The notes under the pieces were generated by a model. The model had not been told where the DNA came from and ran no database searches. It saw only the letters and a list, made by a program, of their open reading frames with translations. A DNA stretch of 32,564 bases from Asterionella formosa (Eukaryota). Location: NCBI GenBank assembly GCA_002256025.1, contig NKIB01000435.1:1-32564 (forward strand). The letters are read 5' to 3'. Of this stretch, positions 3,243-31,729 are shown one piece after another (position 1 is the stretch's first letter; the number at the start of each line of letters is the position of its first letter). A program made the translations under genes and the position numbers.

Positions 3243-3835
3243 TCTTTCGCTAGACGGTATCAACGACTATGCGACGACGAATCGTTCACGTGAACAGACT
3301 TCCGTGGTCTATGTTGACAGTCTATACACGGTAATTTGAGATCACTTCGTAAACAAGAGTCGGAATGGAAGTGAAGACACCTTTGGAGGGAATCCTAGAA
3401 TGAACCCGGAAAGTTTAGTATCGACACTCTACGTCGCTGAAGGTTATGCTGTGAAACAAAATTTTGTCACACGACAAAGCAACGAGTCACTAACGCGTTA
3501 ATACCCGCTATTATCTCAGACAGAGGAGCGCGAGACCAACCGATTGCGGTACGTACCTGTACCCGTAATATAATTTCAACTGGTCATAATCTCTACCGGG
3601 TACCAGGGTACCTTCAACGTGTTCGTCTTGATGATTAACAGTTTGAGCATTTTCCCAAATACCGGTACTGGACGATTGTCCGGTGGAGAGGTACCTGGTA
3701 CCATACCAGGGTACACAGAATCCTGTTACTTTGTCCGGTAGAACTGATCTGATGGTTGGCTTGCGGCACATTGGTATAATCGTCCCAAGAAATTAATCTT
3801 CTGACCTCTGCCCCAGGATAGCAATAACCCTTCAT

Positions 3836-7653: not shown

Positions 7654-7745
7654 TAATGAATATGCTATCATCAATTAAGCTTATACATAATTGAAATATA
7701 TAAAATGCATGAGGAAATCATTATTTTCCATGACCTGATGTCCTG

Positions 7746-7943
7746 TTGGTTTTGGTTTTGGTCAGACTGACGCAAAAACGATGCTATCGGTTTTTGGGAA
7801 ATCCTAAATGTTGTCAACCACGCATCTACTGTGACGTAGGATGACAAAACCATTATAAAAGTAAAAAATTTTTCTATTAGACTACTTTTATAAATGAAAT
7901 ATTTTCATTCCTATGTGGGAATTAGTTAGTTTTCCCGCAATTT
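7746..7943 (-). repeat. Inverted, truncated copy of the right subterminal region (about 7415-7602) of the adjacent Harbinger-type element
   Basis: 7746-7943 is the reverse complement of about 7415-7602 with scattered mismatches and indels. For example, aatggttttgtcatcctacgtcacagtagatg pairs with catctactgtgacgtaggatgacaaaaccatt. Confidence 0.88.
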
Positions 7944-9108
7944 GAGCGAGGCTGCTGTCTCGTCATCCAACTACATACTGACTGGTATCTATACCGGTAT
8001 ATACTAAGATATAGTGTCGGTTTGACGACATGTTGATTGTGGTGAAAAATATCACATACAGTACTAAGGGGTCAGGGATTTCGCTATAAACAAGCCTACG
8101 GGGACTGAACTCATGGACCCCAGAAATTGCACCCAGCCATCTCATATGACATTCGAGTCGCTATCGGAGTTCTGGTTCGTTTCACGTTAGTCTTCTCATC
8201 TGAAATGCCTATGTCCCCCTTGTTAACATTACAGGACTTGTGCTTCCTAGCGAATCCCCTGTGAAGACTGGTCCAGATCGTTCTCACACTCGGATTATTT
8301 CTTATTTTTTGGATGTATACAGAAGTATCATTTCTTATTTCAGGCACTCCTCCGTCCTCCGACTACATCTACCAGTCGACGCAAACCATAAATTGCTAAG
8401 ATTGTCACTAATAAGGAGAAATTCTTATCAATATTAATAACCAAAGAAGCGACATGATGGAATGGACATAAAAATACGATTAAATGGTCAATTACTCGAT
8501 CACGAAGTACGTCACGACATGTACGTCACGATATGTACCTATGCAAGTAAAGAATACCATCGAAAACAACGCTACCTGATACCAGGTACCAAGAATGTTG
8601 GAAAAGTCCAGTCATTTTCTGACGACATAAACTGGTTTCTTCGAAGTTATAACTCGAATCTAAATTGCAAATGTCATCGCAATATCTCATGTCGTAGGCT
8701 CATACCAATAACTGACCGGGGCTACCTGGGACCTACACTAATCATTGCTTTATCGTAGATTTCCCATTATCTATGTAGCTACTGGTAAACAAGAAGGCCG
8801 ATTGATATATCATGCAGGTAATACGATAGCGGTATATTAAATAAAAGGAACTCAGGCACACCACTCGAGGACATTCTAATATTATGTCCCGATACAACTG
8901 TACATCATCATTACATGTAATATGTTGCAGGTCTTGATATATTCCAACACGTGTTGATCAATATTTAAACGCCACACCAATCTCTGTAGTTCATAAATAG
9001 GAATATATTCGTTCTTCCTCTGTTGTGGACATATTAACATAAATCAGAGGCATGATATTTCATCGTCCTCAATAACTTCCAGCACCATCCATCTCAGTTC
9101 CAACCACC

Positions 9109-10623
9109 ATGTCGCGGTCATCAGAATGGGGTAACGAATACCCAACAATCGACAGTTCATCCTTTCAAAAGTTCAAAGAAAAATTGAGAACCGCCAAAGT
9201 AATGTCGAACAATGGAGTAAAACAGATGATGGCCCAAGAATTCCTAAAGCAGGAACGACACCGTTGTCAGATAGAACTAGGGCATGATGCCGACCATTTA
9301 CAATGCGAAATGTCAGAGGATGATAATAAGGGAATCCGGGGTGCCGTTCGCCACTCGCATCGGTATAGCTCTAGTTCGTCCACTTCCCAGCACCGCCATG
9401 GATCTGGCGCACAAGTAGGCCGCGTTCCGCAGAGAAGTTCATTCACATATGGTGCAAATTTTGGAGACGTTAACACACGTAGACGATCGCTCCAACTTGG
9501 TCTTTTCGATCATGGAGAACCCATCGCTCGACAAAATGACCTACAACGGCGGCCAGGCCTTCAAGGCGAGGATTTGAGAATGAGATTGTCTGAAAGTTTT
9601 CAGTTAGAAAATTCGGCAGACCTCACGCCTCATATAAGTCAAGGAAATGCTTCACAACTCGGCTTGTCGAATGGGCCATTGACAGGAATGTGTTCGCTTG
9701 GTTCCTCCACTCATACTATGAAAGGACGTGCTTCACGAGGCAGTCAGTCTAGTGGGTCACAGGAGACTAATCAAAAGGGATCTTTTACTTTCCCTTATAT
9801 TTCCGCATTGTTTGATTCCGAGGATGACAAGGGGCATCCTCTAGGAGGCAGCTTTGATTTTATGGGGTTGGTTGGTTCTTCCACTCCTACTATGCAAAGA
9901 CGTGCTTCAATGCGAGGTTCTACTAGTGGATCATTGACTAACGAGATCTATTCTTTAAGAGACCTTGATATTTCCGCCATGTTTGATTCTGAAGATAAAG
10001 AACAGGCGCAGCGTCAGGCAATTGTAAAACAACCTTGCACATCAAATGGTGCTCAGTCCAACTCAATTTCTGACTTTTTCCAAAATGATGCCAAGGAAGG
10101 GAGAGCAAAAGCTAATTTGGAAGACTCGCGTAGATCCCTTCCTAAGAAGCTGTTTACGGCATTTCAATCTTTGGGTGGGAGTGTTCCTACAGCAATAACG
10201 GCGGACGACTATGAATACTTATTTGCGAACATGAACTTGGTTAAACGCGACGAGAAGGTCTCCCACGAAAATGTTCAAGGACAACGACATGAACAAGGGC
10301 ATTTCATTTCAAAATCCGCCTCTGCACGTGACACCAATCGCAATAAAGTTGAGACACTCGATTTTAATAATGTTCGATCTGGAGGAATGCTACTAGTTGA
10401 ATTTCCTTCCGGTGATTCTGTGCATAGCGATGATGACAATTCTGAAACAGGCCTGAATGTCTCCGAAAGTGGATGCTGCAAAAATGATCGCCTTTTTCCA
10501 AACCATGACGTAGTGGAATTCGAGAAACCTTCGAACTGGGTATATGCCGAGGATGATAGCAGTAATGATTCGGACGACATTGAGCAACATGAAAATGAAG
10601 CTGCTATTGAGCTTGGACTGTAA
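9109..10623 (+). CDS. Hypothetical serine-rich, largely disordered protein, 504 aa, with an internal ~57-58 aa duplication
   Basis: Long uninterrupted ORF with a good start context (ccaccATG), several RRxS/RxxS motifs and an acidic C-terminus. No recognisable domain. Confidence 0.72.
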   Translation: MSRSSEWGNEYPTIDSSSFQKFKEKLRTAKVMSNNGVKQMMAQEFLKQERHRCQIELGHDADHLQCEMSEDDNKGIRGAVRHSHRYSSSSSTSQHRHGSGAQVGRVPQRSSFTYGANFGDVNTRRRSLQLGLFDHGEPIARQNDLQRRPGLQGEDLRMRLSESFQLENSADLTPHISQGNASQLGLSNGPLTGMCSLGSSTHTMKGRASRGSQSSGSQETNQKGSFTFPYISALFDSEDDKGHPLGGSFDFMGLVGSSTPTMQRRASMRGSTSGSLTNEIYSLRDLDISAMFDSEDKEQAQRQAIVKQPCTSNGAQSNSISDFFQNDAKEGRAKANLEDSRRSLPKKLFTAFQSLGGSVPTAITADDYEYLFANMNLVKRDEKVSHENVQGQRHEQGHFISKSASARDTNRNKVETLDFNNVRSGGMLLVEFPSGDSVHSDDDNSETGLNVSESGCCKNDRLFPNHDVVEFEKPSNWVYAEDDSSNDSDDIEQHENEAAIELGL

Positions 10624-11221: not shown

Positions 11222-12391
11222 TCAACCCCCAACACAAGAAGCTGCTTCCTCAATTTCTCTTTGAAACAAATCTTGCAATGCTTGACCTTCTAGAGCATTC
11301 TTGACTTTGAACAAAAATGACGCTGGTTTGCCATTCATAATTGCCCCCAATTGGACATGTTTTTCACTTGGTCTAGTTACTGTACACTCTTGATGCAATT
11401 GAATGTTCACCATAAGTTTAGTACCCAATGATCCAGGAGCAGTTTCTCGTCGTTGCACAATTCGGGCATGCTCTTTCTTCAGCACGCGAAGGGGGCCAAT
11501 TCCGACTTCTCGCCATTTCTTTACGGTTCCAGCTGTCGGAGTCGGCTCCTTCGTGGTTTCTTCGGATGGTTTTTTTGATTCCTCTGCATCAATTGCTTCT
11601 TCTTTAGATTCATCTGCATGCTTCTTGGTCCCATTCTTTTCTACTGCCTTTGGCTCATAATCCTTCTCCAAAGTTGGGCCTGACCCACTGCTCGGAGGAA
11701 TACTGTTCGACGCCGGAATCGGGCCATCGGACACATTCGTCGCCATAAACTCCTCTTCGTCAACGAGCTCAAATGTTTTCGCCCTAACTTCATGCACTAA
11801 CGATTCTCCTTCTTCCCCGTTAGTTACTTCCACGTCGTCTGGGAGCACCGGTTCGCCGGCAGGAGCGGGGTCAGTGGAAGTGGCAAACGCAGATGATGCG
11901 AAGCCAGATGCCGCAAGGCCTCCTCCTTCTGCCTGTTTTCCAAAGATAGATCCACCAGTGGGAGATGCTCCGAAAGCGGATGTTGAAGCAGCTGCTCCAA
12001 AGGTGCTTCCAAAGCCAGATGTTGCAGCGGTTCCAAAGCCCCCAGCCGCCGATCCAATCGCTGCCCCAAAGCCAGTAGCAGCCCCAAAGCCACTTCCGAA
12101 AACGCTTCCACCACTCTTGCTCAGAGCAGCGGCAAAGGGGTTCTTCTTGGTCTCGTCAACTTCGACTGGCGGTCGCTTGACCTTGACAATCTTCCGAGTC
12201 GCTAGTGTGGCTGCGTCTGCCTTTTCAAAGGTTCCCGTTGGTTCTGCTTCTGTCTTGTCCATCGGGTGGCCGCCGTCGTCGTTCTCTTCCTCCTCACGAT
12301 CATCCTTGGTGATTTGACGTTCTGCGGATCGCTTGTTCGTGGCAAGTGGTTCCGTCGCAGAGTCGGCGTTGTCGTTGTTTGGTTTCGGCAT
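11222..12391 (-). CDS. NUP50: Nup50/Nup2-like nucleoporin (NUP50 N-terminal motif, FG repeats, C-terminal Ran-binding domain), ~389 aa
   Basis: KRSAERQITKD and TFEKADAATLATRKIVKVKR resemble the Nup50 importin-alpha-binding N-terminus. A central xFG-repeat block follows. RanBD motifs are NGEEGESLVHEVRAKTFEL, WREVGIGPLRVLK and ARIVQRRE. The likely ATG is at 12391 (MPKPNN); upstream ORF-track residues are AT-rich and UTR-like. Confidence 0.8.
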   Translation of the reverse strand: MPKPNNDNADSATEPLATNKRSAERQITKDDREEEENDDGGHPMDKTEAEPTGTFEKADAATLATRKIVKVKRPPVEVDETKKNPFAAALSKSGGSVFGSGFGAATGFGAAIGSAAGGFGTAATSGFGSTFGAAASTSAFGASPTGGSIFGKQAEGGGLAASGFASSAFATSTDPAPAGEPVLPDDVEVTNGEEGESLVHEVRAKTFELVDEEEFMATNVSDGPIPASNSIPPSSGSGPTLEKDYEPKAVEKNGTKKHADESKEEAIDAEESKKPSEETTKEPTPTAGTVKKWREVGIGPLRVLKKEHARIVQRRETAPGSLGTKLMVNIQLHQECTVTRPSEKHVQLGAIMNGKPASFLFKVKNALEGQALQDLFQREIEEAASCVGG

Positions 12392-12751
12392 GGTCGTTTG
12401 GTATTTTGTACACACGCTATATAAAGTATTCAGAATACCGGTATTAAAATACATTCTGGTATTATACTGTAAAAAAACCAAGCAAATAATAACAAGTACA
12501 GGTGCGTATACTCTAGCTGTACAAAATTAGTCCACATTACATATTTTGCACTCCTACCTGGTACCTGGTAGTAAAATACACACCAAGATCGCCTACCGTA
12601 CAAACGTAGCAATAATACCATGAATTGGTTGCGCACGACCAAGCCATCATACTGAGGGTAGATCATAATAAATACCTGGAGTACCAGGTACCGGTAGACC
12701 CTACCCTACAGAGTTGTGTATAGGGGTAGCAGGTACCAGTACCCTGATCAC

Positions 12752-12798
12752 CCTGGTACCTGGTACCTGGTACCTGGTACCAGGTACCAGTACCGGTA
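12752..12798. repeat. (CCTGGTA)4 heptamer array switching to CCAGGTA and containing a perfect 24-bp palindrome
   Basis: The sequence reads cctggta x4 (12752-12779) then ccaggta ccagta ccggta. 12767-12790 (ctggtacctggtaccaggtaccag) is its own reverse complement. Confidence 0.85.
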
Positions 12799-12851
12799 TC
12801 ATAATCATATCAAAATCGTTCGATCATGATCACATAAATATTGTGTGAGCG

Positions 12852-13928
12852 ATGGACACCGACAAACTCACTAATGACAGTACCGGTACTACCAACTGGT
12901 TTACTACCATCCCGATTCATTTACGTATCTCGACAACAGCATCGTCAGGTCGAGGCCTGTATGTAGCCCCCAACTGCCGATTGCAACGCGGACAAGTAGC
13001 ACTGTCGACATGTCCCACTGCGGTTTGCATTTCTGCTCGACACTCTAACTTCACCTGTGCGTGCTGTCTGAGTCGGAATGCATCTCCAGAGTTCCCAGAG
13101 GAGCCTGTTCCTTGCAAGTTGCGCTGTCGCATTTGCAAGAGTGCAAGCTGGTGCTCGAAAGCATGCAAAACTCAATCCAAGGCAAGACATGCGGTCGAAT
13201 GTCCTTTATTGGCGAGATTGGCACACACCACCAATCGGCACATTAAGCGGGAGGAACGGGAGCATATTGTTATTTTGGCAAGCACTCTGGCTAGTTTGGG
13301 CAGTGGAAGTGACGTGAATGGCAGCTCACAGAGAACAAACACGGAGGGGGAACGTATGTGGCTGCAAGAGATACATTCGCTGGTGGAACAAGACTGGGGA
13401 AAGCCTGGTTCCAAGAAATGTCGGCGTGTTATGCAAGATGCAGCCACGAAAGTACATTCATGGGGTGGAGCAGAGATGAACTGTCCTTGCGCTATGCATC
13501 TGCAGCATGCACTACGAACTGGACCCATGAATGACGTGGGTCTTTGGGATGAACGAGGAGAATCAATTGGCCGCTGTGTGGCTCCAATATTTGCTTTGAC
13601 CAACCATTCGTGTCTACCCAACTGTGCCCAAATCATATCTAATGGAAATGTCCAACTGATTGCTCTGTGTGACATTGAGTCTGGAGAAGAACTCACTCAC
13701 TCGTATGTTAATCTGAATGTATGTGATCGTGAGCAAACGATGCTGCGGTCCTGGCAGTTCAAGTGCCGCTGCATTCGATGCCACACGCCATTATCGCCGC
13801 TTGTTTCGACATTTGACACAAAGCACTTGTGCCGGTGCGGAGGAGTGGTTTTGGAGCGAAGATATGTCGATCCGAACAAGACACCACGAGAGGAGGAGTG
13901 TCAATGTAATATGCTGCAGATGTTATAA
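12852..13928 (+). CDS. SET and MYND domain (SMYD-like) lysine methyltransferase, 358 aa
   Basis: Split SET domain: GRGLYV, then a MYND zinc finger (CACC...CRICKSASWCSKACK...HAVEC), then ALTNHSCLPN and GEELTHSY. A post-SET motif follows (WQFKCRCIRC). Confidence 0.88.
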   Translation: MDTDKLTNDSTGTTNWFTTIPIHLRISTTASSGRGLYVAPNCRLQRGQVALSTCPTAVCISARHSNFTCACCLSRNASPEFPEEPVPCKLRCRICKSASWCSKACKTQSKARHAVECPLLARLAHTTNRHIKREEREHIVILASTLASLGSGSDVNGSSQRTNTEGERMWLQEIHSLVEQDWGKPGSKKCRRVMQDAATKVHSWGGAEMNCPCAMHLQHALRTGPMNDVGLWDERGESIGRCVAPIFALTNHSCLPNCAQIISNGNVQLIALCDIESGEELTHSYVNLNVCDREQTMLRSWQFKCRCIRCHTPLSPLVSTFDTKHLCRCGGVVLERRYVDPNKTPREEECQCNMLQML

Positions 13929-14177
13929 GAATGACGGCTAATATATTATGGGGGTTTCGAATTGAACGATTACATGGACACCAATGTGTGAGGTTTCCAA
14001 TTTGAAAACAATCCTCAAATTACGCTACTGTATTGTTACTCCATGTGATGTCTAGCATTGAACATGTCTCAACCATCCGAGTTTTTATTTAGCAAGTTGA
14101 TGTTCGGAGTGCTTGCTGATCAGTCACAAAGGTGACCTTTGCAAGGCTTAACAAGAGCAATGAGGAAGGAAGAGATG

Positions 14178-14948
14178 TCACTCAAATTGAGTTAGATCGA
14201 AAAAATCCCGTCGTTCCTCCTTTATACCTCCAAAAGCTACCCGTGTGATGATTTGAGTTGGTTTAGGAAATAGTTTGTGCTTGTGAGTTCGATTACGCAT
14301 CTTTCTTGGAAATTGATTGCACCAAAATGGAGGCCTCGCCAGAACACCAGCATGGATAAGCCCATGAACAGTGCAGTAATTTAGGGTCATTGTCATGAGC
14401 AAGTGTCCGCAAGAAGTTGTGGTCGCTCGACAAGGGAACTCTTTCGTCACGATACGGTCATGACCTTCTTCAGACCTGACAGCTCCCTTCTTGCATCCAG
14501 CCTCCAGAGGAAGTTCGATTTGACCCCCCTTCCATTTGTTGCCGTGGAACTGAGATTTCTCGTGCAAGTGGCCATGGTGAATAATGCATTCAAAAATTTG
14601 AACTGTAACATTACCGATCTGAGAAGTACCTGCAGTGTTTCCATTGCCCGTCCCTTTCGTTTTGGCAAAACGAAGGGCCCTGGTACAGTTGAATCCATCG
14701 TTGACAGACCAAAGGCCACAAAGACATTCCGTACTCTGATGCATCATGTTGATTGAGTATCCCAAACATTCATCGTCAACGAACAGGCGCATTGTTACTG
14801 CTCTTGGAAACATGCTGCTGATCTTGATGTAGTAGTCAACGTCAGGCTCCACTTCAGCAAAGGTTTCCCCTTTTGGTCCGGTATGTTCCTTGAACGGTCG
14901 CTTTGTATCGACGGCAATGAGCTCCAAGCTAAATCCTAATTCCCTCAT
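14178..14948 (-). CDS. Hypothetical protein, 256 aa, globular and beta-rich in appearance
   Basis: ATG-initiated ORF with ordinary protein composition (FSLELIAVD...PFKEH...FAEVEPDVDYYIKI...MRLFVDD; IGNVTVQIFE). No function assignable. Confidence 0.7.
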   Translation of the reverse strand: MRELGFSLELIAVDTKRPFKEHTGPKGETFAEVEPDVDYYIKISSMFPRAVTMRLFVDDECLGYSINMMHQSTECLCGLWSVNDGFNCTRALRFAKTKGTGNGNTAGTSQIGNVTVQIFECIIHHGHLHEKSQFHGNKWKGGQIELPLEAGCKKGAVRSEEGHDRIVTKEFPCRATTTSCGHLLMTMTLNYCTVHGLIHAGVLARPPFWCNQFPRKMRNRTHKHKLFPKPTQIITRVAFGGIKEERRDFFDLTQFE

Positions 14949-16046
14949 GATGGCTTTTGTGTAGTCACTGGAAGGGCATTTTAGTTGCGTCTCCTCGCTT
15001 GTGTAAAAACTGACGAATCATTTGCTCGCATACGAACCACGGCTGATGGGAGAAAATGTCCATATAAAGGAGTCCCATACATAAGTAATGTTAAAAGAGG
15101 CATTATCATAGGGACTTGAATTTAATACCGTTCGCGTTGACGATGGGAGGGGCATACAGGCATGCTGTGACATCAGTAATATAAACTTTATGATGATCTT
15201 ATTTAAAAGGTGATCAAAGCAGATTGAGAATGTCTACCTTGTACCAGGTACGAGGTACGGTACCAGGGTGCCTGGTGACCGGTAGTGCTTGCGATTCTCC
15301 CTCCTACATATAAGTAGCGCAACCCTAGAATGACCGCGATCAAGCCGCTCGCGTTTGCATTCTTGGTATATTCTTCTTATTTTAATTAATTTAATTACCC
15401 GTACTCTGAGTATATGTATGTATGGTTGTCATACGTTTTCACATCTGAGGCTTACTATTCTTTTAATATTTTTTAAAATATGCAAGGAGTGATCAACCAA
15501 GTACATTCCTTCATGATAGGGTCATTTTGCTTCACCTTGTCCTTGAACTCTTAAACTATGCATGTTAAACACAGACCCAACATAGGTTGAACAACACACA
15601 TGTCACCTGCTTCTTGTATTGCATGCACATTCAAGGCATGCGGAAATAGTAGGAAAAGGGGGCGAAAGTCCCAACCACTTTCCTCTCAAAATAAATGTCG
15701 AGTACATGTTTTTCCAAACCAAATGATAAACAAGTGTAATTGTACCATGAACATCAATTGGCTTTGTTGCAGGCGTAATTCTCCACCTAAGCTTTTGTTA
15801 TACTCTAAAATGTATTCATTTACCTGTTCTATGGTATTGCTTGGGAGATTAGGGCAGCCAAGCCAAATGCAATTTGAAGCTAAGAGAAACGTAAAAATAA
15901 AAAAATTCATACCCTTTGCATAGAAATTGACCAATAACATGAGCTATATCATTACAAGTTGCTCTTTAATGGGTTGTATGCATGCAGGTACACATAGTCA
16001 TGTCAACATCATGTCATTAGCACAAGCACCTTCTCCAAAATGGCAC

Positions 16047-17191
16047 TTATGATTCAACTGGGGCAGGGACAAAGAAATCATTGATGGTATCAGAGTAAAA
16101 ATCAGGAGTAATGCTATTCTCTGGCGACAAGAGCTTCGATTCCGAGGTAACACCAGACAAGACTAACAAGGATTGGAGTCCGTTGTCAGTTCCAAACAAA
16201 ACGTCAGTATCCAAGCGATCACCAACCATGCAAATACGAGATCTTTCCAATCCCAATTTGTCGCAAAGGTAATCAATCATCAATGGACTTGGTTTTCCAA
16301 CAACCGTAGGCTCTTTTCCGGTGCATCCCTTGATGGCCCCCACCATACTTCCATTCCCAGCCCACTCCTGTGCATCTGTCAAGTGTGTGACAGCGTCCAA
16401 ATTGGTGGCAATAAACTCACATCCAGGAATTTCGTTGATACACAGTTGCGCATATTGAATCTTGTAGTAGTTGATCGTTCGGTCAAAGCCAACAATAACG
16501 GCACCAACATCATGGTCGTGTTCCATGAAATCGCCAGGCCCCATGTTGGGCTGCTTGCCAGCATCAGCCGGTCCTCCAATATAGGGAACATTTATCAAGT
16601 CGAGTTCTTCGCAAATTCCTACTTCACCAATGACGTAGACTTTTTTCCCAGTCTCTTTGAATTTGGTTTGTTCCAAATAGGCGGCGGCGGCAAAGGAACT
16701 GCTGAAGATTTCCTCAGCAGGAATGTCCAAGCCCAGAGAATCGAACTTTTTCTTGTAACCTGCTCGGGACTTGGTTGAGTTGTTTGTGACGAAGTACATC
16801 TTTTTACCAGCCGCTCGGAGTCTGGCAAGGGTTTCTGGGATTCCGTCAATGAGCGAGTCTCCCTGAAGGAAAAAACAATGGTGAGCCGTGAGAACTTAAC
16901 CACGACAAGTTATTTAGGTTCCTTGTTCTTGATGGAATGATTCAGCAGTTCAACATACAGTAGACATAATTTGAGGGCACGTACTCTCCAGATGACGCCA
17001 TCGCAATCAAAGATAAAGACATCGATTCCGTCAAGAAACTTGTCAGGCTCAGTAAGTTTCAACACGTTGGCCTTCAAGGCGGTAGAAATGTGACGGGCGA
17101 TTCCACTACGAGCAAAGGCCGTAGGTTGAACGCCAAATGCAACAGCCCGGGTAGCAAGGAGCGAAGTTACAGCAACGGAAAGGAACTTCAT
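16047..17191 (-). CDS. PGP: Phosphoglycolate phosphatase (HAD IIA family), plastid-targeted, 2 exons, ~340 aa
   Basis: HAD motifs FIFDCDGVIW, FVTNNSTKSR, GKPSP and MVGDRLDTDVLFG. Exon 1 is 17191-16985, the intron is 16984-16863 (GTACGT...TTCAG, 122 nt) and exon 2 is 16862-16047, joining ...VIWR|GDSLIDG... The N-terminus MKFLSVAVTSLLATRAVA-FGVQP is a signal peptide followed by a Phe-initiated transit peptide (ASAFAP type). Confidence 0.93.
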
Positions 17192-17299
17192 GGTGCAACG
17201 TGATGAGCTTGTAGTGCGGAGAACAAAATGATGAAACTCATGGGACGACGTCGGAGAGAAGCGAAATAGAACGCACAGATCTCGTTAAATTGCTACCGA

Positions 17300-17322
17300 T
17301 GACGTCTCGTCATCTCTGACGT
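17300..17322. promoter_or_regulatory. Pair of TGACGT (CCRE/CRE-like) motifs about 110-130 bp upstream of the PGP start codon
   Basis: TGACGT occurs at 17300-17305 and 17317-17322. TGACGT/ACGTCA/TGACGC are the described CO2/cAMP-responsive elements of diatom carbon-concentrating and photorespiratory genes. Function here is inferred. Confidence 0.5.
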
Positions 17323-18204
17323 ATACGCACCCAGCGATTTCAAGACGGGCACTGAAATCGGACCTACTGACAAGAATACGATGCCTGTGATGATGGTGCA
17401 TGCTTGTTGGGAACTCTAGATCTTAAGAAATATACAGGTTTACGCGTACAAGACATTTGTTCATATGTGGATACCGGTATGTTGTTAAATGTATAGTAAA
17501 GACCATATCGGTAGACAATTTACCGGCATCAGTTGCTTAGCAGTCTACTGGTATTAGAGTACCAGGTACCGGCAGGTAAGTTCTTCATGTAATTGTGCTG
17601 AATAAAAGGTTAGCTTTCTTTATCCTATATTACCGGTAAATGAGCACGGCTTGCTGGTACATATGTGTCGATGGGCAATGAAATCTCATTCAGCCATGAT
17701 GGCTGATAGACAAGTAGCAACGATTCATTTTGATTTACTTTGATGACTAATACGTGGGTATCATCGGGTACAGGAAGATCTGGTAGAAGCGCTTTAATGT
17801 ATAGGTCGTTATAGATAATCTACCGGTAGTGTATAATGCCGGTAATGCACATTCCTTTCAAGTTTCTTGTGTTCTTGCATGGTACATATAATGACATAAA
17901 GATGGCGATTGAAGGTGCACGTTTGTATGACCGCTTGTTTGCTTCGTATCATGCAAGTGACGCCGCTAGGTCTCTAGAATTCAGTCCCCGGATACGAGGG
18001 TGTTGCTAGTTCTGTGAATCTTGACACCGTTGTTCGCGTTCCCAAAAAATTGACGCGATGATGTTCTTTGGTAGGAAAGGAAGCGGAACTGACAAACGAG
18101 AACTCTAGAAAAATACCACTGATGTAGATTGACATCGCTCCTTTCCTGAAGATCACAAAATACAAACGCAACACAACATAACAAGAGCAACTAATATTTT
18201 CACC

Positions 18205-20309
18205 ATGATTCAACTAGCTCCCTTAGCCATTCCACTCCTTTCTAACATCAACTTCGTCCCTCTATGGATAATCCTCCCCTTTGTCTTCGTTGTTCCCTTT
18301 TTCTTATGGTTGACAACTTGGCCGGGCAACAAGAAACACAGCACTCCCATACGTGCCAGTACCTTCCGCCCAGACGCTGTGCCTGTGAACGTTGATACCA
18401 TCGTTGTTGGCTCTGGGTCAGGTGGATGTGCATGTGCCAATCTTTTGGCCCAGTCTGGTCAACGAGTTCTCCTACTGGAGCAGCATCCCGATCGAACAGG
18501 AGGTTGCACACATTCTTTCCGAGAGAATGGGTGTGAGTGGGACACTGGTCTTCACTATACGTCCAAGGCAATGAGTGACAAAACTTGTCGGCCAGGTGCT
18601 ATTATGGATTTCATGACTCAAGGAAAGCAAGAATGGCGTCGCTTGGATGATCCCTACGACGAAGTTGTCTTTCCACAAGATGATCAAGTCAAGCAAGGTT
18701 TGCCGAACAAGCAATCATATCCTTTTGTCAGTGGCATGAACCATACCGTGGAGGGTATCATGGCCAACATTGATCCGATGAATGAAGAGTTGAAAAAGAG
18801 GTGTGTTTTGTAGTTGCGCAACTAATATTTGCATGGTATTGTGAGATGTAGTTCACCGTGCTAATGTTTCCTTCATCTTGAAGAGTTTACGCGTACATGA
18901 ATGTGTGCGAGGAAGTCAATGCAGGTTTTACGGCCTTGGGGATTTCTCGCGTCCTACCCTCATGGCTACAATTTCTCGTCAAGAAACGAGTTGATCGCTT
19001 GATGACCATCGCTAGCATGACTGTACGAAACGTACAGTATGCTATTTTCAACCTTGGCTACTCTTCGGAGCAGCTCATCAACGAAGGGTGTCCCGAAGCT
19101 CCCGATGGGCCTGAACCTGACCTTGCTATTCGTCGCCTCAAGGCTGTCTTGACGCATCCTATTGGAGATTATGCTGTCCAACCCAGAGATGCCACCATGG
19201 CAGCTCATGGAGTAACTATGTCTCATTACCGAGACGGTGCTGCCTACACAGTTGGAGCCACCCAGAACATTTCAATTCGCAGTTCAAGCATGGTCCGTGA
19301 GTTTGGTGGCGAAGTCCTTGTCGATTGTACGGTTAGAGAAATAATCATTGAAAATGGCCGCGCAGTTGGAGTCCGTGTCAGCAACACATCGACTTTGGCC
19401 AAGTGTGAGTCAGATGGGGGCATAGTATCTGTGCCTGTCACAGAGATTCGAGCCAAGAACATTGTCTGGGCATCAGGAATCTACAACCTCTACACAAAGA
19501 TACTGCCACAGGATCTACAGATAGTCAAGGACTTCAATGACCCTTCCAAGCGAACTGTGCGCCAAAGCAATGGCCACGTTTTTCTCTTTTGCAAACTTCG
19601 AGGTGATGCAACTGAACTTGGTCTACCTACTCACAACCTTTGGTACTTCAACGGATACAACCTTGATGAAGCATTTGATGATTATTTTGCTAATCCCAGG
19701 GAGGTCCGTCCACCAACATGCTACATTGGGTTTCCATGCACTAAGGATTCTACCTGGAAGAAACGTTTTCCAGGAGTGAGTAATTGTGTCCTCATTTCCG
19801 ATGGGCTTTGGGAGTGGTTTCAGGAGTGGGCAGACAAGCCAGTGCATAACCGTGGTGAACGCTATGAGGAATTCAAAATCCAACTCAGCAAGCACCTACT
19901 TGATATTCTATACGAGACAGTTCCACAAGCCAAGGGTAAAGTGGAATTCCATATGCTTGGTACTCCCTTGTCAGAAACAACTTACCTGTCATCCTTCCAT
20001 GGTGGCTCTTATGGTACCAAATGCACGACATCTATGTTTGACGCCATAAACAGAAAGTGGACTACAACTCCACACACTGCTATTCCTGGTCTCTATCTTG
20101 CTGGTTCTGATGCTTACCTTCCTGCAGTTTGTGGTGCCATGTATGGTGGTTGCTTTGGTGCCAGTGCTGTCCTTGGACATCTTGGCACTTTGCGTCTCAC
20201 TGCTGCTGTCCTTGGTCACCTTGCAACAACTCTTAAAGAAGAGAACCCAAAAATGTCCTGGCCTAGTGCATATCTTTTGGCAATGAATAGGTTTGTGAGT
20301 GATGACTGA
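18205..20309 (+). CDS. FAD-dependent oxidoreductase of the retinol saturase / phytoene desaturase / CRTISO family, 2 exons, ~673 aa
   Basis: N-terminal hydrophobic anchor, dinucleotide-binding motif DTIVVGSGSGG...LAQSGQRVLLLEQH...GGCTHSFRENGCEWDTGLHY, and C-terminal TPHTAIPGLYLAGSD. Exon 1 is 18205-18800, the intron is 18801-18883 (GTGTGT...ctaat...AAG, 83 nt) and exon 2 is 18884-20309, joining ...LKKR|VYAYMNV... Confidence 0.87.
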
Positions 20310-21152
20310 GCAAGGAAATGACATTCACTATCAGTTCCATACAAATAGCCATGATTAATATATCAATGTATTCAATCTTGTATCCTTGTAATATAAAATG
20401 ATGAGAAGCATTTGATAAATTGGCTCATTAACCACCACTTTTGAAAATAACAACTATGCATACACAGAGGCAAGTTGGTTGGAAGCAGGTTTTCATATTG
20501 TGCAAAACTGTCACTGGAGTTGTTACAACCTCATAGCAGGTCTGTACATGCAGGTTGCTGTGCAAATAATAGCAGCTTCTGCAAATGATGCAATGTATTT
20601 ATAATATGGTCTAGTGACTGCTGTATACTAAGGTTATTCCAGAACTGTCTGTGAATTTCTGCAGGAAGAGGAATCGTAGATTTCCCAAGGAAACAAGAAC
20701 TATGGACCCTATTTTCCCTTGTCTGGTGTCATATAAGCTTTCGATAACAAGCCAACCAGAGTGAGGCTTTGCAGAGCAACTGGTGCTCTCGATATACCAA
20801 TTCAGCACGAAACATGAACGATATAATCACTACTTGATAACCTTTTGTAAACTTCCTCCGCATGGAACCTAGGAAATGAGGACATGTTCGTTGTTTGATG
20901 AATACCGAAGAGGCAAACCAACATCACTAATGAATCCAAAACAAACATAGGGGGAAACTAACCGTGCATGAGAATCCAATAGTATTGCAATTGGTTTCTA
21001 TTAAAACCTAACTCCTTTTTGGTAGTCTATCAATTCCAGAATCTATAACTCTCTCAGTAATCGGTTGAGCAAGTAAACAAACTCGATGTGACATGCCCTC
21101 AGTGGCTACCCGTCATTGTTTTGCACCGGTGTTCCTGTTACCCGTCATTGCC

Positions 21153-25257: not shown

Positions 25258-26223
25258 TTAGTTAATCGAGACATATTCCTCCTGTCTCGCAGATTTTAAT
25301 GGAAATTGAAAGCCTTGCACTTGAGCACGGCCAGTTTCAAGTTGGTCTTGCATAGATCGAGAGGCCGTTCGATCATTCATTGCTTGGACGGAACGAAGGT
25401 TATTTCTGCCAATTTCTGTCCCTGCAAACATATTTTGTGTATTTTCTCCAAGTGCTGACAGCTCGGATTTTCTTGTCATAATGTTATTGAATGAGCGCGT
25501 ATTTTGGTCGTTTTCGAAGTTGTTTTTCATGTCGGTTCTCAATTTGTTATTTGCCGATTGGGTTCCTTGATGGTTTTGGTATTCCATTATGTCATTATTG
25601 TTGTTTGTTCCAAAGCCCGCTTGATGTGCGTTCCCATAACCTTTGGACGTGGCAGTTGTCGATCGTAAAATAGTATTGGATGCAGGCCCGAATTGATTCC
25701 CTGTCTTTCCTGAAGTTAACGTTTGAATCATTCCATTTGTGTTAGTTGAGGTCGCATCATCATGATTCGTGTTCAATCTCATTCCATTAGAGGCCAGTTC
25801 CGGCAAAGGCGCATATTCTTGATATTTCCTCGCTGGCCGCGTCATTCTGGGCTCGTACCCCGTCAGCGCAATCGATTCCGAAGTTGACTGGAACGCACTT
25901 AATTGCTGTTTATATGCCTTCCACCACTTCACGGTGTGTCGTTGTTCCCATGCATGAAGTATAAAGTACATGAGAAACATTCCGATGAATATGTATAGGC
26001 AGGGACGCGGCAATCTTCGTCGTTTGATAGGAAAACGTGAGTCAGTCTCAGGTTGCAAATAGGTGGCTAGCGGTCGGTCGACTAGTGAGTCAACAAAAGT
26101 GGTATCACCGTTCTTAATAAGCTTTCGCAGAAATGCAGTATCCCCAGATGAATCGGTCGTTTCCTCGTCAAAGTGCAAACGCCGAGTACTTCGTGCCTTT
26201 GCATATCTCCGGCTGTCTCTCAT
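25258..26223 (-). CDS. Hypothetical type II membrane protein, ~321 aa, with an N/Q/T-rich disordered C-terminus
   Basis: Long ORF whose first ATG is at 26223 (MRDSRR). A basic cluster (KRRRLPRP) directly precedes the hydrophobic segment CLYIFIGMFLMYFILHAW. Confidence 0.65.
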   Translation of the reverse strand: MRDSRRYAKARSTRRLHFDEETTDSSGDTAFLRKLIKNGDTTFVDSLVDRPLATYLQPETDSRFPIKRRRLPRPCLYIFIGMFLMYFILHAWEQRHTVKWWKAYKQQLSAFQSTSESIALTGYEPRMTRPARKYQEYAPLPELASNGMRLNTNHDDATSTNTNGMIQTLTSGKTGNQFGPASNTILRSTTATSKGYGNAHQAGFGTNNNNDIMEYQNHQGTQSANNKLRTDMKNNFENDQNTRSFNNIMTRKSELSALGENTQNMFAGTEIGRNNLRSVQAMNDRTASRSMQDQLETGRAQVQGFQFPLKSARQEEYVSIN

Positions 26224-27242
26224 GATGTAAGGTGCACGAGTGTGGACTTTAACTTGTGACTTGAGGTGGGAAGCAAGCAATGCACTCGGATGTGTTTGCT
26301 TCGAATTGCCGAACTTTAGCAACAATCATGATATTATGCTGCTCCGGAGGGTGATATTTGTTCTTGTTTCATATTTAGATTCTTAAGAATGCCTGCGTTT
26401 TCCGTGCTCCCAACTATGATCTGCACGCACAGGATGCACAAGTGATGCATCGCGACGAGGCAGAACAAATCTTTATCAGGGAATGTCTGGGAGAAAACGG
26501 CTTGTGCTACCTGGTACCAGTATAACGAAACTCTGCTACCTGCATGTTCCGGTCATTTTGCTGAAATTGATAACGTGACGCAGGACAGGCGTTGTTTATA
26601 TAGAAAACGTCATCAATCCAGTGTTTAAAATCGTATGTGCGCACATACCGGTATATGCATGGTGACCATCACTAGGTTTATGCTGATTTTATTCTTCAAG
26701 CAAAACATGAAGAAAACACAACAATGACTGGAGCAATAGAGGGGCAGCCCAAAGCAAAAGTAAGCAAAGTAGGCAAGTCTTGCTTACACTGCTTTATTCT
26801 CTCCAAACTCAAAATCTTTCTCCTTTTCCAGCTGAAGTGACAATGAAAATAACCTATCTTAATCAATGGTTTCAAAAGTCGTTGGGATTGGAAATTCGTA
26901 ACTGCCAGCATCATCATAGCAGCAACAAGATATAGCTCTATTATCAACTACCAGTATGTATTTACAGTACATAAGCATGTTATGTATGCATGTATACTAT
27001 GCACTATATTGACTGTTAACCAATGAAGATAATAGCATTACTGGTCATAATGGTATGTATACTGCATCAACTGTCAACTAGGAGTACATATACTGGTAGT
27101 ATAATGAAGACCATAGTATTCCGATACCTGGTACTTATTGGTAAGCAAACAATTTTGAAATCTTATCACCATCACGCTTCCATCATTCCCACCTCACAAT
27201 GATTCCATTTTGCGGTGTAGGCCGATACAAGCAATCAAATCA

Positions 27243-27753
27243 AATCTAAGCTAATAAATAACTTGTTTCCAATCTTTTGCTGCCTTCAATAAATCATCTT
27301 ATTGTTTAGTCGTTTTTGTATTCATTGTACATCTCCTGTGAAAGTGTCAAATCTGCTGATAGTATGGTTGTTTTGAACTACAAATCCATAAATTGATCAT
27401 TAAAAATGCGCTATCGACTGTTTCAATTTTCGTTGTCAATATTAGAGTTACTATAAAAGTTTTTCTTTACGATTGCATTTTCTATATCGTGCTTAATCTA
27501 AGCTACTAATGAATAACTTGTTTCCTATCTTTTGCTGCCTTCAATTAATCATTTTATAGTTTAGTCGTTTTTGTAGTCATTGTAAAGCTACTGTGAAAAT
27601 GTCAAATCTGCTGAAAGCATGGTTGTTTTGAACTCCTTTGAATCTATAATTTAATTGTTAAAAAATGCGCTATCATAGAATGTTTCGATTTTCGTTATCA
27701 ATATTAGGGTAATTACAAAAATTCTTTACAATTGTATTTTCTATATCGTGCTT
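27243..27753. repeat. Tandem duplication, 2 units of about 252 and 259 bp
   Basis: Unit 1 (27243-27494) and unit 2 (27495-27753) both start aatctaagcta and end ttttctatatcgtgctt. Shared blocks include tcttttgctgccttcaat, gtttagtcgtttttgta, tgtcaaatctgctga and atggttgttttgaact. Confidence 0.9.
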
Positions 27754-29289: not shown

Positions 29290-29669
29290 AAAAAGTTTCC
29301 ATAACAATTTGTCACTGTTGGTAAGTGGCAAAAGCGCTGATACAGTTAAACCAGATGAATCTGATAATGATGACATGAATTCAAATAGTATACGCGATGC
29401 AAAGACATCCATTCCTATGAAACCCAAAAAAGTAGAAAATTCTCGGTAGAGAAAGAAAAGTGTGGGATTTGGCGCATTTCCGGAAGTACTAAACAGTCAA
29501 AAACTCAACCAAAACGATCAGATGGGACAGAATAATTCTGCCTATTACACCCAGACAGCGAACACGATAAACAGCGGTTAAGAACCTTGTAAATTCGGAA
29601 AGTCGAAATGGTGATTATTAGCTACACTGTCCCAGCAAAATTAATTTTATGGGGAAACGTCAATTACTC

Positions 29670-30918
29670 AGATGGAACCCAAACACTCCTTCCATATGTA
29701 TGCTTCTTGAAAAGTACAAAGAGCATGCCAGCCCATGATCTCATGTTTTTTGCTACAGGTGATAACATTTGAAATGAAAATACAGGATTAAGCACGCGTT
29801 GTTGAGCATAACAACATACTTTCCATGGCGTTTGTGGTCCATGGTGCTTTACCACTGGCTACTAACAGAAAATGTATGAGTACGAAAGAAACCGTTAAAG
29901 CCATGGAAATCACTGATTATTATATTGCGTTACCATCACAAAATCAAAGGAAATTGATTGGTTAAGATATTCATTTAGGTACAGAGACATAGTAACGGGT
30001 GGTAAAGTGTTCACATAATTTAGAATATACTTCAACATGTGCATAGTAGTTGCTTCTGAATTCATAAAATGTTTTTTCTTTTCATATGTTTTATAGCCCA
30101 CTCGTATTCCCCTCTTTAGAGGCAAGTATTTCATTCTGCTACCTTCCGACAAGACCTGTGCTTCTCTAGCTTTGTTAGCGTAGGTGAGTCCCCAACCACC
30201 TTTCGCGAAAGGTGATCGTCTTAGCCGCAGCGTTAGGGGAAACTCCGACCGCCTGGGAAGGCGCGACAAGCTGCTTGTAGGGGGGCAACCCATTATTTCT
30301 TGTACACCAGGCAAGACCGTGCGGGACGGTAGGAGTGTGGGAGTCGAACCCAACAATTGCTCCTAAAAATTGCGAGAATCGAACCTCACAACCTCAGATC
30401 AAAGGCAACGTCCTAAACCACTACTAAGCCACTCCCTCTTGAATTCATTATATACTTATCAATCTTCTCTTTATTTTTTTGAGGAAGTGATGAAAAATAT
30501 GAACTGTCATCATCCACTGATTCTTCCGACGATTTCCATAGTTTCTTAACATTGTTGTAAAGTCTATCATGTTGGATGCCATCCAGAAGGACAGAATGAT
30601 GGCTCACTCTCAGCATGCAAAGCACGTCCGAATTTGTTGTCGAATTTCAAGGTTTCTTTATTACCTATCATGCCAATGGAATGATTCTACAGGATGTTGA
30701 ACCATTTCACCAAAATTCATCAATTTGGTAGTACTTAATTTTAGAGATAACTCAAATTCAGGATTGAACTCCAATTACTGCAATTTTTTCAAGAATGAAT
30801 TTTTGAGAACTTATACCAGCATTGCTGCATTATCAATTCCGAAAGCTGTATGGTCAGGAAATGATCATCCCTTTTCATCTCCACTAAATTTCTTTCCTGA
30901 GAATGTATCCCAACCATG
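29670..30918 (-). pseudogene. Decayed coding-like sequence, possibly transposon-derived, interrupted by the SINE-like insertion
   Basis: ORF fragments on either side of the insertion join in frame at the TSD (...KIDKYI-MNS-EATTMHMLKY...). Flanking frames read as protein-like with scattered TGA/TAA stops. Boundaries are approximate and the product is unknown. Confidence 0.4.
30066..30439 (-). mobile_element. tRNA-derived SINE-like element, 374 bp, with a 9-bp target-site duplication
   Basis: The minus strand begins AGAGGGAG-TGGCTTAGTAGTGG (A box-like), then GGTTCGATTCTC (B box-like) and a second GGTTCGACTCCC. A GC-rich structured body follows, ending in an A-rich tail (ATAAAACATATGAAAAGAAAAAAC). 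It is flanked by the direct repeat tgaattcat at 30057-30065 and 30440-30448. Confidence 0.72.
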
Positions 30919-31729
30919 ATCGATTGCTCATTAACTGTGGCTCACTTTGTTTCCCCATACACACTATGTCGCCATTGTAGCGTAATTGAAGTAATACACT
31001 CCAGAAATTTCGGAATTCTTCGGTAAGCTATCATGAACTAATTCCAGACTGGTATCAATTTCTGGAGTCAACTTTAATTTAATTTTGGTTTCACTTTGGA
31101 AGGGGGAGCTCTAAAACGACCCGGAAAATACAAATGTTTGACTACTGCGAAGGTTGGATGTGTTCCATATTGAATGCGCATGTATACTGACAACCAGTAC
31201 CTGGTACCGGTACCATTGGTACCTGGTTCCGAGGATGCACCGGTACACACCATAGTATGTACGAAAATTTTCTACTACTTTTCGTTTCACTTTGATGACC
31301 GTTGCATGTGTGGTATTTGCTGTAGTAATATTCATTTATTCTTACAGGATATGTACAGGGATTTTATCCTCTTATAATGTCACGGTAGTTAGAAATCAAC
31401 TCGGTGAGTAGTGTGAGTGCGGAATACAATTTACGATTTTAATATTCTGTTGACAATCTTAGTAGTTTCACTTGTGTGTTTTCTAAAAGAGTGAGCTTAA
31501 ACTAAATGTAATTTTGAAATGTAGTTTCGATTGAAACATGGCAATTCCTACATGTTTCTGAAATGAATTTGTTCTTTGTTCCTTCTTGGAGGCGAGGTTC
31601 TTCGTAGTTCCTACAGCTGTAGCGAAGTAGATTAGTACATCCTCTTCCTTGCAACATATATATCCATCTAGCCTAGATAGATTCTAGGACATAGATGTTC
31701 CTCTACTGAGATACTTTTCAGGTATCTGC

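Follow-up and report, generated by a model that had tools for sequence, protein, structure and literature searches.

Positions 30066-30436 of the window (the whole 32,564-nt stretch of DNA analysed here), read on the minus strand, most probably represent one copy of a high-copy, non-autonomous retroposon of about 370 nt, a SINE residing in a diatom-like nuclear genome, and the double-hairpin region that was singled out by an initial sequence-only reading would be the 5′ head of this element. With the same good confidence, and as part of the same reading, the head appears to be a decayed tRNA-like unit in which an A-box region is followed by the first T-arm/B-box module, a run of Ts and a second module. 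Dispersed repetition and target-site duplications were demonstrated for the element, and the family as a whole shares both modules and the T-run. As for the host, its CCT-beta has its best named matches among diatoms (83-84% identity), the best match of all being a transcript (87%). The features of the window copy, all of them on the minus strand, are the following:

30066-30436, minus strand: SINE-like retroposon, full copy of 371 nt, with head, body and short A/T-rich tail, bounded by a target-site duplication
30440-30448, minus strand: 5′ copy of the target-site duplication, ATGAATTCA, the same 9-mer being found again at 30057-30065
30057-30065, minus strand: 3′ copy of the target-site duplication, ATGAATTCA, directly after the element tail
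30430-30436, minus strand: acceptor-like stem, 5′ strand GGGAGTG, 7/7 pairs with 30331-30337
30418-30431, minus strand: A-box-like motif TGGCTTAGTAGTGG, with a 3-nt insertion relative to copy L001 (TGGCTTAGTGG) in the copy alignment
30366-30395, minus strand: hairpin 1, the first T-arm/B-box module, with extended stem and B box at 30375-30385
30365-30369, minus strand: T5 run between the modules, Pol III terminator-like, element nt 68-72
30330-30365, minus strand: hairpin 2, the second T-arm module, with T stem 30349-30352/30338-30341, T loop 30342-30348, B box 30340-30350 and outer stem TAGGAG/CTCCTA
30331-30337, minus strand: acceptor-like stem, 3′ strand CACTCCT, which pairs with the element 5′ end or, alternatively, with 30359-30364, and is invariant in 5/5 DNA copies
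30086-30329, minus strand: SINE body, holding a hairpin (30197-30214) that is palindromic and conserved in the copy alignments; no Rfam match at E up to 10
30066-30085, minus strand: A/T-rich 3′ tail, copy-specific and ending in TTTT; family alignments stop at 30085 and tails differ between copies

A dispersed family and its copies

Contigs from three DNA runs of different studies (X1, X3 and X6) pile up over 30085-30423 to about 350-1700 times the depth of the flanks, a summed depth from metagenome contigs that is not equal to copy number. For X1, with 9236 contigs aligned, the summed depth was 0.54-1.6 million over 30112-30417 against about 950-990 for unique flank contigs, whilst X3 gave about 12,000-21,000 over the element against 34 at the flanks, and X6 about 2,000-3,200 against 5-6. 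The same pile-up sets the family ends at 30085 and at 30423, the latter followed by a 10-nt loose end. Within the window there is a single copy of the element, and a tandem array is absent. Searches in a metagenome collection returned ten loci, four of which (L001, L002, L007 and L008) hold genuine copies, with 81-92% identity along 289-352 nt, and lie on separate contigs with unrelated flanks; the remaining six were dropped as chance hits, with only 18-26 nt matching. A viral contig collection offered just six loci of 19-20 matching nt each, again chance, and a genome contig collection had no match to the element patterns. Our DNA sample comprises five copies (the window copy plus these four), all selected by one 18-mer and four of them from contigs with one sample prefix, and 13 further copies were seen indirectly through spurious ORF translations reaching the head, which makes a total of 18.

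Two of the three copies in which both ends are available show target-site duplications, of 9 bp in the window copy and 14 bp in L002; L008, the third one, showed none, and L001 and L007, each with one end missing, stay outside this count. We are dealing with a short (<1 kb), interspersed and non-tandem repeat, like the SINEs of the SINEBase article (PMC3531059), whose full copies are surrounded by duplications of variable length, like those left by non-LTR-type retroposon insertion. Since these target duplications vary in length, retroposition by a LINE-type reverse transcriptase is proposed, and the window copy would be an inert insertion, given that its A box carries the 3-nt insertion listed above.

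Altogether, the excess of contig depth, the further copies and the target duplication bear out the original suggestion that the region is the head of a repeated, tRNA-like element of the SINE type. A chance resemblance, or a degenerate single-copy tRNA pseudogene lacking any family, would agree with the one copy present in the window and with the failure of the tRNA detectors (see below), but it is already refuted, and we give it practically no credit, in view of a massive depth excess that three DNA runs of different studies show over the element alone, four independent copies with different flanks, and two B-box matches where 0.14 are expected. A coding exon was rejected as well: a Pfam match is absent, and the frame shifts between the ORF translations of the copies argue against coding constraint.

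A tRNA-like head with two T-arm modules

Along 30436-30330 of the minus strand, the head shows an A-box-like motif, at 30418-30431, followed by two T-arm/B-box hairpins spaced 35 nt from each other. Both hairpins lie where they had been placed beforehand, at 30395-30366 and 30365-30330. The sequence GGTTCGANTC has only two sites on both strands of the 32.5-kb window, 30341-30350 and 30376-30385, for an expected count of 0.14, and two or more sites turned up in 1/100 shuffles. The first module sits at the position where a tRNA gene has its B box, and the second one resembles the 3′ half of a tRNA, with a short linker, T-arm 2 and a strand complementary to the 5′ end of the element. The A and B boxes may act, or may once have acted in the source copies, as a Pol III promoter inside the element, derived from a tRNA ancestor. 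Under the SINEBase rules, as given in excerpts of PMC3531059, such boxes are an indication only, and the internal T-run urges caution over a Pol III promoter reading of the A-box-like and the two B-box motifs.

In this regard, ARAGORN under default settings reported no tRNA gene in the head of any of the five copies, and Rfam at gathering thresholds gave no match for the window copy. The best sub-threshold Rfam match was tRNA-Sec, spanning 30331-30436 with a score of 20.2 bits (E 0.29; cut-off 47); across the copies the Rfam tRNA clan reached 19-20 bits against the same cut-off and, at E up to 10, the element and the four other copies gave only sub-threshold tRNA-Sec. With loosened settings, ARAGORN called Glu, Lys, Leu and Glu among the copies, with 'introns' of 11-42 nt. 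As the detectors are silent by default and the anticodon calls inconsistent, the tRNA ancestry rests on the box motifs and their geometry, and a functional tRNA gene or tmRNA is discarded on these same negative detectors and inconsistent anticodons. An origin from a CCA-tailed mature tRNA was also rejected: the ACCG that follows the acceptor strand acts as a decaying CpG, and reads CTG or CCA in other copies.

Each hairpin folds better than expected by chance, the whole head only marginally so. Hairpin 1 of the window copy reaches −11.8 kcal/mol (z −4.53; none of 200 shuffles as good) and hairpin 2 reaches −11.4 kcal/mol (z −2.35; 5/200), compared with a z of −1.70 for the complete 107-nt head (10/200) and of −1.22 for the head plus flanks (119 nt; 24/200). 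The stems are neater in the window copy than in the other four, and the hairpin 1 stretch yields only −5.2 to −7.3 kcal/mol in the three other copies having it.

No block of the element outside the selected stretch is better conserved than module 2. The second TTCGA hairpin, which had been put forward as a family feature, is indeed found in 5/5 DNA copies and in all 13 ORF translations reaching the head, and T-arm 2 is kept even in three translations (P0129, P0138 and P0140) that have deletions in other parts of the head. Over the five DNA copies, the block 30332-30357 accumulates 3 differences in 130 alignment cells versus 161/1644 element-wide (uncorrected binomial P 0.0009), all three falling at the CpG of the T loop, and no 26-column window does better once the stretch used as search query is set aside. 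The sequence-only reading had staked its second hairpin on two signs, conservation among copies and compensatory changes, and only the former appeared: two-sided changes amount to 0/21 pairs in hairpins 1 and 2 and to 0/22 in the enlarged fold, in a set of five sequences with near-invariant stems that gives the comparison low power. Altered TFIIIC binding and a double-elbow substrate for RNase P/Z, two further ideas of that reading, are conjectural. Module 2 may have been kept by a need of the source genes, either as a B box or as an acceptor/T minihelix of the transcript.

Modules 1 and 2 have a 21-nt block in common, with 16-17/21 identities in three of four copies and a 16-nt block (13/16) in the window copy. 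Such scores were reached in 1-27 of 1000 shuffles, and 11 letters of the block are those of the universal B box; the flanks are unlike. A clean tandem duplication of 35 nt was rejected, the sequences after the two modules being unrelated. The double T-arm most likely arose in the founder of the family, be it through a partial duplication or through fusion with another partial tRNA-like piece.

The internal T-run and the rival readings

The T5 between the modules had been read as a possible copy-specific decay mutation, an idea that the alignments overturn, since runs of T4-T7 occupy the same place in 4/4 DNA copies covering it (T7 in L001, T5 in L002 and T4 in L008, besides the window copy). 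The T-run is a trait of the family, and its conservation inside the element is the one real oddity of the case. With T4-T7 inside the presumed transcript of all four copies, full-length Pol III transcription is not obviously possible. In the excerpts of a study in mammalian cells (PMC8466645), T5 terminates Pol III efficiently, with near-complete termination at T5 or longer runs, and T4 does so at about 65%; the same excerpts indicate that T-runs may lengthen in old copies after insertion. A two-product Pol III unit could follow from these observations, in which termination at the T-run makes most loci produce a tRNA-like RNA of about 70 nt, and the body is carried and retroposed through rare read-through or Pol II transcripts. 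The T-runs of the four copies and the mammalian termination data (PMC8466645, in excerpts) speak for this unit, as do the Phe/Leu codons, compatible with a T-run, found at its place in 8/13 ORF translations, and the many contig alignments that break at 30365-30369. We nevertheless regard it as rather unlikely, because those termination rules are mammalian and may not be the ones of diatom Pol III, the source genes may carry a weaker run that lengthened after insertion (as the same excerpts of PMC8466645 would allow), L008 reads TTGTTTT, and the translations P0135 and P0136 imply an interrupted run. A poly(A)-selected RNA run (X17) gave 28 contigs, with 98% of the aligned part continuing into unlike sequence; these contigs show no discrete SINE RNA, and a run of this type cannot reveal Pol III products.

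A different origin for the head could be a dimeric one, in place of an internal duplication, with joint transcription either of a pair of adjacent tRNA genes or of one tRNA gene, complete with its terminator, and a partial tRNA lying downstream. The T-run exactly at the expected 3′ acceptor strand and terminator of the first unit suits this origin, and the unlike sequences after modules 1 and 2, with which a clean 35-nt tandem duplication does not fit, point in the same direction. Module 2, however, lacks an A box, a D arm and an anticodon arm of its own, and the TTGT before and the CA after the universal B-box letters, common to both modules, suggest a common descent within the element, so that we hold the dimeric origin as possible though on the doubtful side. 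Less probable still would be a functional RNA mimic, a transcript folded as an enlarged, two-elbowed tRNA-like structure, or as a tRNA-like unit plus a minihelix, which would be processed by RNase P/Z or a CCA-adding enzyme and in which selection would keep the shape and not the DNA promoter. As had been noticed from the letters, CACTCCT is able to pair with the 5′ GGGAGTG, the acceptor-like end of the window copy forming 7/7 pairs; both Infernal and the loosened ARAGORN take T-arm 2 plus the termini as an acceptor/T domain, with module 1 as an insert; and the best-conserved unselected block is module 2. Yet the acceptor keeps only 6, 5 and 4 of the 7 pairs in the three other copies whose 5′ end is present, 4/5 copies have an A.C mismatch in the outer stem of hairpin 2, the L001 head is no better than shuffles (z −0.78; 45/200 as good) with neither hairpin in its best fold, two-sided changes are nil, and the B-box requirement accounts for the conservation equally well. 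The boldest combination would be a first characterised diatom SINE family whose head is a two-output Pol III unit, with the family-wide T-run behind module 1 causing a tRNA-like RNA of about 70 nt to be released from thousands of loci and rare read-through RNAs folding their ends onto T-arm 2 as an enlarged tRNA mimic, the form that is retroposed; it strikes us as a long shot. Our preferred reading remains the SINE with a decayed tRNA-like head.

Meaning and comparison with known systems

The element is of an ordinary type, in a group where such families are hardly described. Our literature search, with most subscription journals outside its scope, found repeat tallies only and no described diatom or stramenopile SINE family, and the sequence strings of the element had no match in it. 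In the excerpts of two diatom genome papers (one of them PMC7466962), SINEs appear only within the repeat annotation; according to PMC7466962, single-celled eukaryotes were formerly believed to lack them, and little is understood of what they do in diatoms. If well defined, with sharp ends, target duplications and a very high copy level, a family of this kind could serve diatom genomics as a repeat model, as a source of insertion markers and as a way into the Pol III promoters and terminators of the lineage. Moreover, the conserved T-run poses the question of how a Pol III-type retroposon can bear such a terminator-like signal at nt 70 of its transcript; should this be an ordinary SINE with a weak T-run in the source copies, the finding would be routine annotation.

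Like the tRNA-derived SINEs in the excerpts of SINEBase (PMC3531059), the family is a short dispersed repeat at what appears to be a very high copy level, with A- and B-box motifs in tRNA-gene spacing in the 5′ head, an unrelated body, a variable tail and target duplications (9 and 14 bp). Unlike those SINEs as presented there (PMC3531059), its tRNA likeness is below detector level, there is a second T-arm module together with an internal T-run, the tail is neither a simple repeat nor poly(A), and the host looks like a diatom. A tRNA gene whose anticodon arm holds a long insert or intron is another likeness, as Infernal and the loosened ARAGORN model the head in this way with module 1 as the insert, but here the scores are far under the cut-offs, the anticodon varies, the insert holds a T-arm and a T-run, and the whole is repeated in dispersed copies and has a body of 240 nt.

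The Twin SINE of Culex pipiens (Feschotte et al. 2001) reportedly contains two near-complete tRNA-like monomers, for which a dimeric tRNA precursor was proposed. Both cases have two tRNA-related regions in one short retroposon; in contrast with Twin, the second unit is here only a T-arm and a 3′ acceptor strand, which pairs with the first unit at its 5′ end. Module 2 consists of just a linker, the T-arm and the 3′ acceptor-like strand in 5/5 copies, and the element is not a dimeric or complex SINE. The rodent B1 derives from 7SL RNA and has a clean tandem duplication. With quasi-dimeric SINEs such as B1 (PMC3531059, in excerpts), our element has in common that a part of the head appears to occur twice within one element, and under the SINEBase rules, as excerpted from the same article (PMC3531059), an internal duplication does not found a new family. 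Unlike the two parts of B1, the modules described here share only the 21-nt block (16-17/21) and are separated by an unrelated spacer of about 17 nt with the T-run.

A probable high-copy retroposon and its insertion site

The double T-arm region most probably forms the head of a retroposon of SINE type, carried by a freshwater diatom. The element (30436-30066, minus strand, 371 nt in total) consists of this head, a GC-richer portion of ~240 nt and a short tail rich in A/T. Direct repeats of 9 bp, ATGAATTCA, flank it at 30448-30440 and 30065-30057, and it occurs once in the window. Public runs containing the stretch were mainly freshwater and algal metagenomes, and contigs of three DNA runs (X1, X3 and X6) and one poly(A) RNA run were aligned to 29500-31000 at ≥80% likeness. 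The summed depth over 30112-30417 was 0.54-1.6 million in X1 (9236 contigs), ~12,000-21,000 in X3 and ~2,000-3,200 in X6, against ~950-990, 34 and 5-6, respectively, for unique flank contigs, an excess over the element of ~350-1700-fold, with the proviso that summed contig depth does not equal copy number. The element very probably belongs to a high-copy family. Contig alignments end at 30085 on one side and at 30423 on the other, where the loose end of the contigs is GGGAATGGCT (minus strand) and the window reads GGGAGTGGCT. Moreover, X1 and X6 contigs with 0 or 1 differences cross the 3' junction, which indicates that samples from two separate studies contain this same insertion.

An 18-mer from the body, scanned once against metagenome_contigs, matched 10 loci, four of which are true copies: L008 (92% over 319 nt), L007 (89% over 289 nt, cut by the contig end inside the spacer), L001 (84% over 325 nt, with likeness lost in the final ~70 nt) and L002 (81% over 352 nt, with a 14-bp target duplication). 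The other six, matching over only 18-26 nt, were dropped as chance. Around L008 no target duplication was found, and no copy turned up when viral_contigs and genome_contigs were scanned with patterns. A long stop-free frame of ~100-115 codons spans almost the entire element in the family, as a result of which gene callers deposited spurious translations; at least 19 such 'hypothetical proteins', none with a Pfam domain, occur in public protein sets. The head is reached by 13 of them (P0122, P0125-P0127, P0129, P0130, P0132 and P0135-P0140), which cover it in all three frames, and the frame shifts between copies argue against a coding role and allow the translations to be used as indirect copies at the amino-acid level. 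Since both protein queries contained module 2 (hairpin 2), the 13 cannot be taken as unbiased.

The element sits in a 6-kb ORF-poor, AT-richer stretch with no Pfam match. Elsewhere the window is eukaryotic, dense in genes with long exons, and gives Pfam matches to DP, NUP50/RanBP1, SET, HAD phosphatase and CCT chaperonin; the best named relatives of the CCT-beta fragment are diatoms (83-84% identity), its top match overall being a transcript (87%), which points to a diatom or a close relative as host. Between these recognisable genes, four open frames as long as 355-515 codons (3797-5191, 9076-10623, 18882-20309 and 25258-26325) matched no Pfam family at E 0.001. Nested inverted repeats at 7423-7936 (~190 nt between arms of 72 and 99 nt that are 92-94% complementary) look like a foldback or MITE-like element, and at 27251-27634 a 129-nt unit occurs twice in direct orientation (91% identical, 255 nt start to start). 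Both SINE flanks (29704-30010 and 30440-30620) are mildly repeated in the aligned runs, with an X1 depth of ~10,000-47,000 versus ~950 for unique contigs and 17-26 X1 contigs carrying identical variant letters, so the SINE may have landed inside another low-copy repeat. Adjoining the 5' flank is a C/D-box snoRNA-like stretch (30483-30527, plus strand, up to 30548) with a 5-bp terminal stem GGAAG/CTTCC, then UGAUGA and then CUGA. Four models match it, all sub-threshold: SNORD41 (22.9 bits versus 41, E 0.088), snoR79, snoR14 and snoR116; at ~45 nt it is shorter than a typical snoRNA and may have arisen by chance.

Anatomy and tRNA likeness of the head

The head, the 5' 107 nt of the element, shows the following features in the window copy.

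Sequence features of the head
From 30436, minus strand: 5' acceptor-like strand GGGAGTG
After GGGAGTG, minus strand: A-box-like motif TGGCTTAGTAGTGG
30395-30366, minus strand: hairpin 1 (T-arm 1), cap GGTTCGATTC
30369-30365, minus strand: T5 run
30365-30330, minus strand: hairpin 2 (T-arm 2), TAGGAG-CAAT-TGTTGGG-TTCGACT-CCCACA-CTCCTA

The hairpins proposed in the sequence-only reading agree with the sequence in letters and coordinates, and their structural description is right, as is the suggestion that the 3' strand CACTCCT (30337-30331) can pair with the 5' GGGAGTG, since complementarity is complete in this copy. The two strands of the 32.5-kb window together contain only two GGTTCGANTC sites, which lie 35 nt apart in the head, for an expected count of 0.14 (at least two sites in 1 of 100 shuffles). 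Folded alone, hairpin 1 reaches -11.8 kcal/mol (z -4.53, equalled by 0/200 shuffles) and hairpin 2 -11.4 kcal/mol (z -2.35, 5/200). Folding of the whole 107-nt head is marginal (z -1.70, 10/200 shuffles as good), and with flanks z is -1.22 (24/200).

For comparison with tRNA genes we used the textbook A-box and B-box motifs. L001 has TGGCTTAGTGG as its A box and GCTT/AAGC as its D-arm; the first B box is placed ~50 nt from the start, as in tRNA genes. T-arm 1 carries one extra nucleotide in its 5' strand, and the T-run starts where a 3' acceptor strand would be expected. ARAGORN reported no tRNA or tmRNA in the head of the window copy, and Rfam gave no match there at gathering scores. The best sub-threshold Rfam match was tRNA-Sec (20.2 bits for a cut-off of 47, E 0.29, 30331-30436), with T-arm 2 and both ends as acceptor/T domain and hairpin 1 skipped as a 28-nt insert. 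ARAGORN loosened to an 80% threshold with long introns permitted placed its model every time on T-arm 2 and the termini, with anticodons inconsistent between copies (Glu, Lys, Leu, Glu).

Module 2 resembles the 3' portion of a tRNA, with GCAAT, a short linker, T-arm 2 and a strand pairing with the element start. GCAAT occurs both behind T-arm 1 and ahead of T-arm 2, each able to pair with the upstream ATTGC. The two modules share a 21-nt block (16-17/21; 1-27 of 1000 shuffles score equally high), while the sequences 3' of each are unrelated, so that either a partial duplication or fusion with a second, incomplete tRNA-like piece could have given rise to them.

The second T-arm and the internal T-run across copies

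In the five-copy head alignment the block ATTGTTGGGTTCGACTCCCACACTCC is invariant apart from the T-loop CpG (TTTGA in L001 and L002, TTCAA in L007). The region 30357-30332 shows 3 differences from the majority letter in 130 cells against 161/1644 element-wide, excluding the stretch used as search pattern (uncorrected binomial P 0.0009), and ranks first among the 26-column windows outside that stretch. The corresponding counts are 9 in 80 for the first T-arm and 40 in 172 for the 5' 37 nt, which contain the A box and the D-arm region. Some body blocks, 30317-30292 for example, are nearly as conserved, which makes the conservation of T-arm 2 notable but not unique. T-arm 2 is present in 13/13 head-reaching translations, with the proviso that the queries included module 2, and is unchanged at the amino-acid level in seven; P0135, P0137 and P0139 change as from a CpG transition in TTCGA, and P0125, P0127 and P0129 otherwise. 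It is kept in translations implying loss of the spacer between the two GCAAT repeats (P0129), of the module 1 3' half and spacer (P0140) and of part of module 1 (P0138). The second T-arm is a family feature.

Differences in L001, L002, L007 and the aligned contigs are mostly transitions, many at CpG (TTCGA to TTTGA or TTCAA; CCG to CTG or CCA; in X1, G>A 28, C>T 21, T>C 20 and A>G 18), as would be expected from cytosine methylation of the repeats in the host. A perfect 18-nt palindromic hairpin, CACCTTTCGCGAAAGGTG (30197-30214, minus strand), lies where the body is best conserved; in L001 both of its CpGs have decayed symmetrically (TTTTGCAAAA) with pairing preserved, and it might be the hairpin by which the partner reverse transcriptase recognises the element.

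The second TTCGA hairpin is retained among copies, but compensatory changes are absent: two-sided changes affect 0/21 pairs of hairpins 1 and 2 and 0/22 pairs of the enlarged fold in the five copies, and covariation scores equal the shuffled score for both. Paired cells amount to 87-88% versus 41-64% in slid controls, an excess expected from structures derived from the window copy.

Stem pairing in the window copy and in other copies
T stem, hairpin 2: paired in the window copy; invariant in the others
Outer stem, hairpin 2: G:C in the window copy; A.C mismatch in 4/5 copies
Acceptor-like stem: 7/7 pairs in the window copy; 6, 5 and 4 of 7 in others
Inner two pairs, hairpin 1: both paired in the window copy; one or both lost in every other copy

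In the other copies the folding energy is -5.2 to -7.3 kcal/mol for hairpin 1 and -5.0 to -8.4 kcal/mol for hairpin 2, versus -11.8 and -11.4 here, and for the L001 head it is no better than that of shuffled sequences (z -0.78). Given this weaker pairing and folding, the neat hairpins are partly specific to the window copy or its subfamily. P0129 and P0138 imply the same GGGAGTGG start as the window copy, whose CTCCTACC state, without one T found in the other four DNA copies, is common among aligned contigs (extra letter in 35-52% of DNA depth at 30330). An RNA role of the head finds no support in covariation, and altered TFIIIC binding and RNase P/Z recognition are putative.

The T5 had been suspected of being a copy-specific decay mutation, which is contradicted by a homologous T-run in 4/4 copies covering the place: T5 (window), T7 (L001), T5 (L002) and TTGTTTT (L008). 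Of the 13 translations, eight show Phe/Leu codons at this place, as a T-run would allow, P0135 and P0136 imply an interrupted one, two lack the spacer and one starts behind the run. Numerous contig alignments break at 30365-30369, as homopolymer length variation would cause. According to one report (PMC8466645), Pol III termination in mammalian cells is efficient at T5 and ~65% at T4, and as SINE copies age, their short T-runs tend to become longer. The internal T-run, which a Pol III transcript in the diatom would have to pass, is the sole feature for which we found no place in the ordinary SINE picture; this run and the strongly conserved second T-arm merit experiment.

Comparison with known SINEs

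Text and sequence-string searches of the literature, covering main texts and few subscription journals, found no description of this family. In the parts consulted, the Cyclotella cryptica genome paper has SINEs from automated annotation only and describes what they do in diatoms as poorly understood (PMC7466962), and that on Pleurosigma gives for SINEs their GC content only (PMC12803021). By the SINEBase definitions (PMC3531059), the element is a short interspersed repeat, and its copy number very probably suffices. It differs from a dimeric SINE in the SINEBase sense, since module 2 is not a near-complete monomer, and resembles what SINEBase terms a quasi-dimeric SINE (PMC3531059).

The nearest named analogue is the Twin SINE of Culex, the head of which reportedly also contains two tRNA-related parts.
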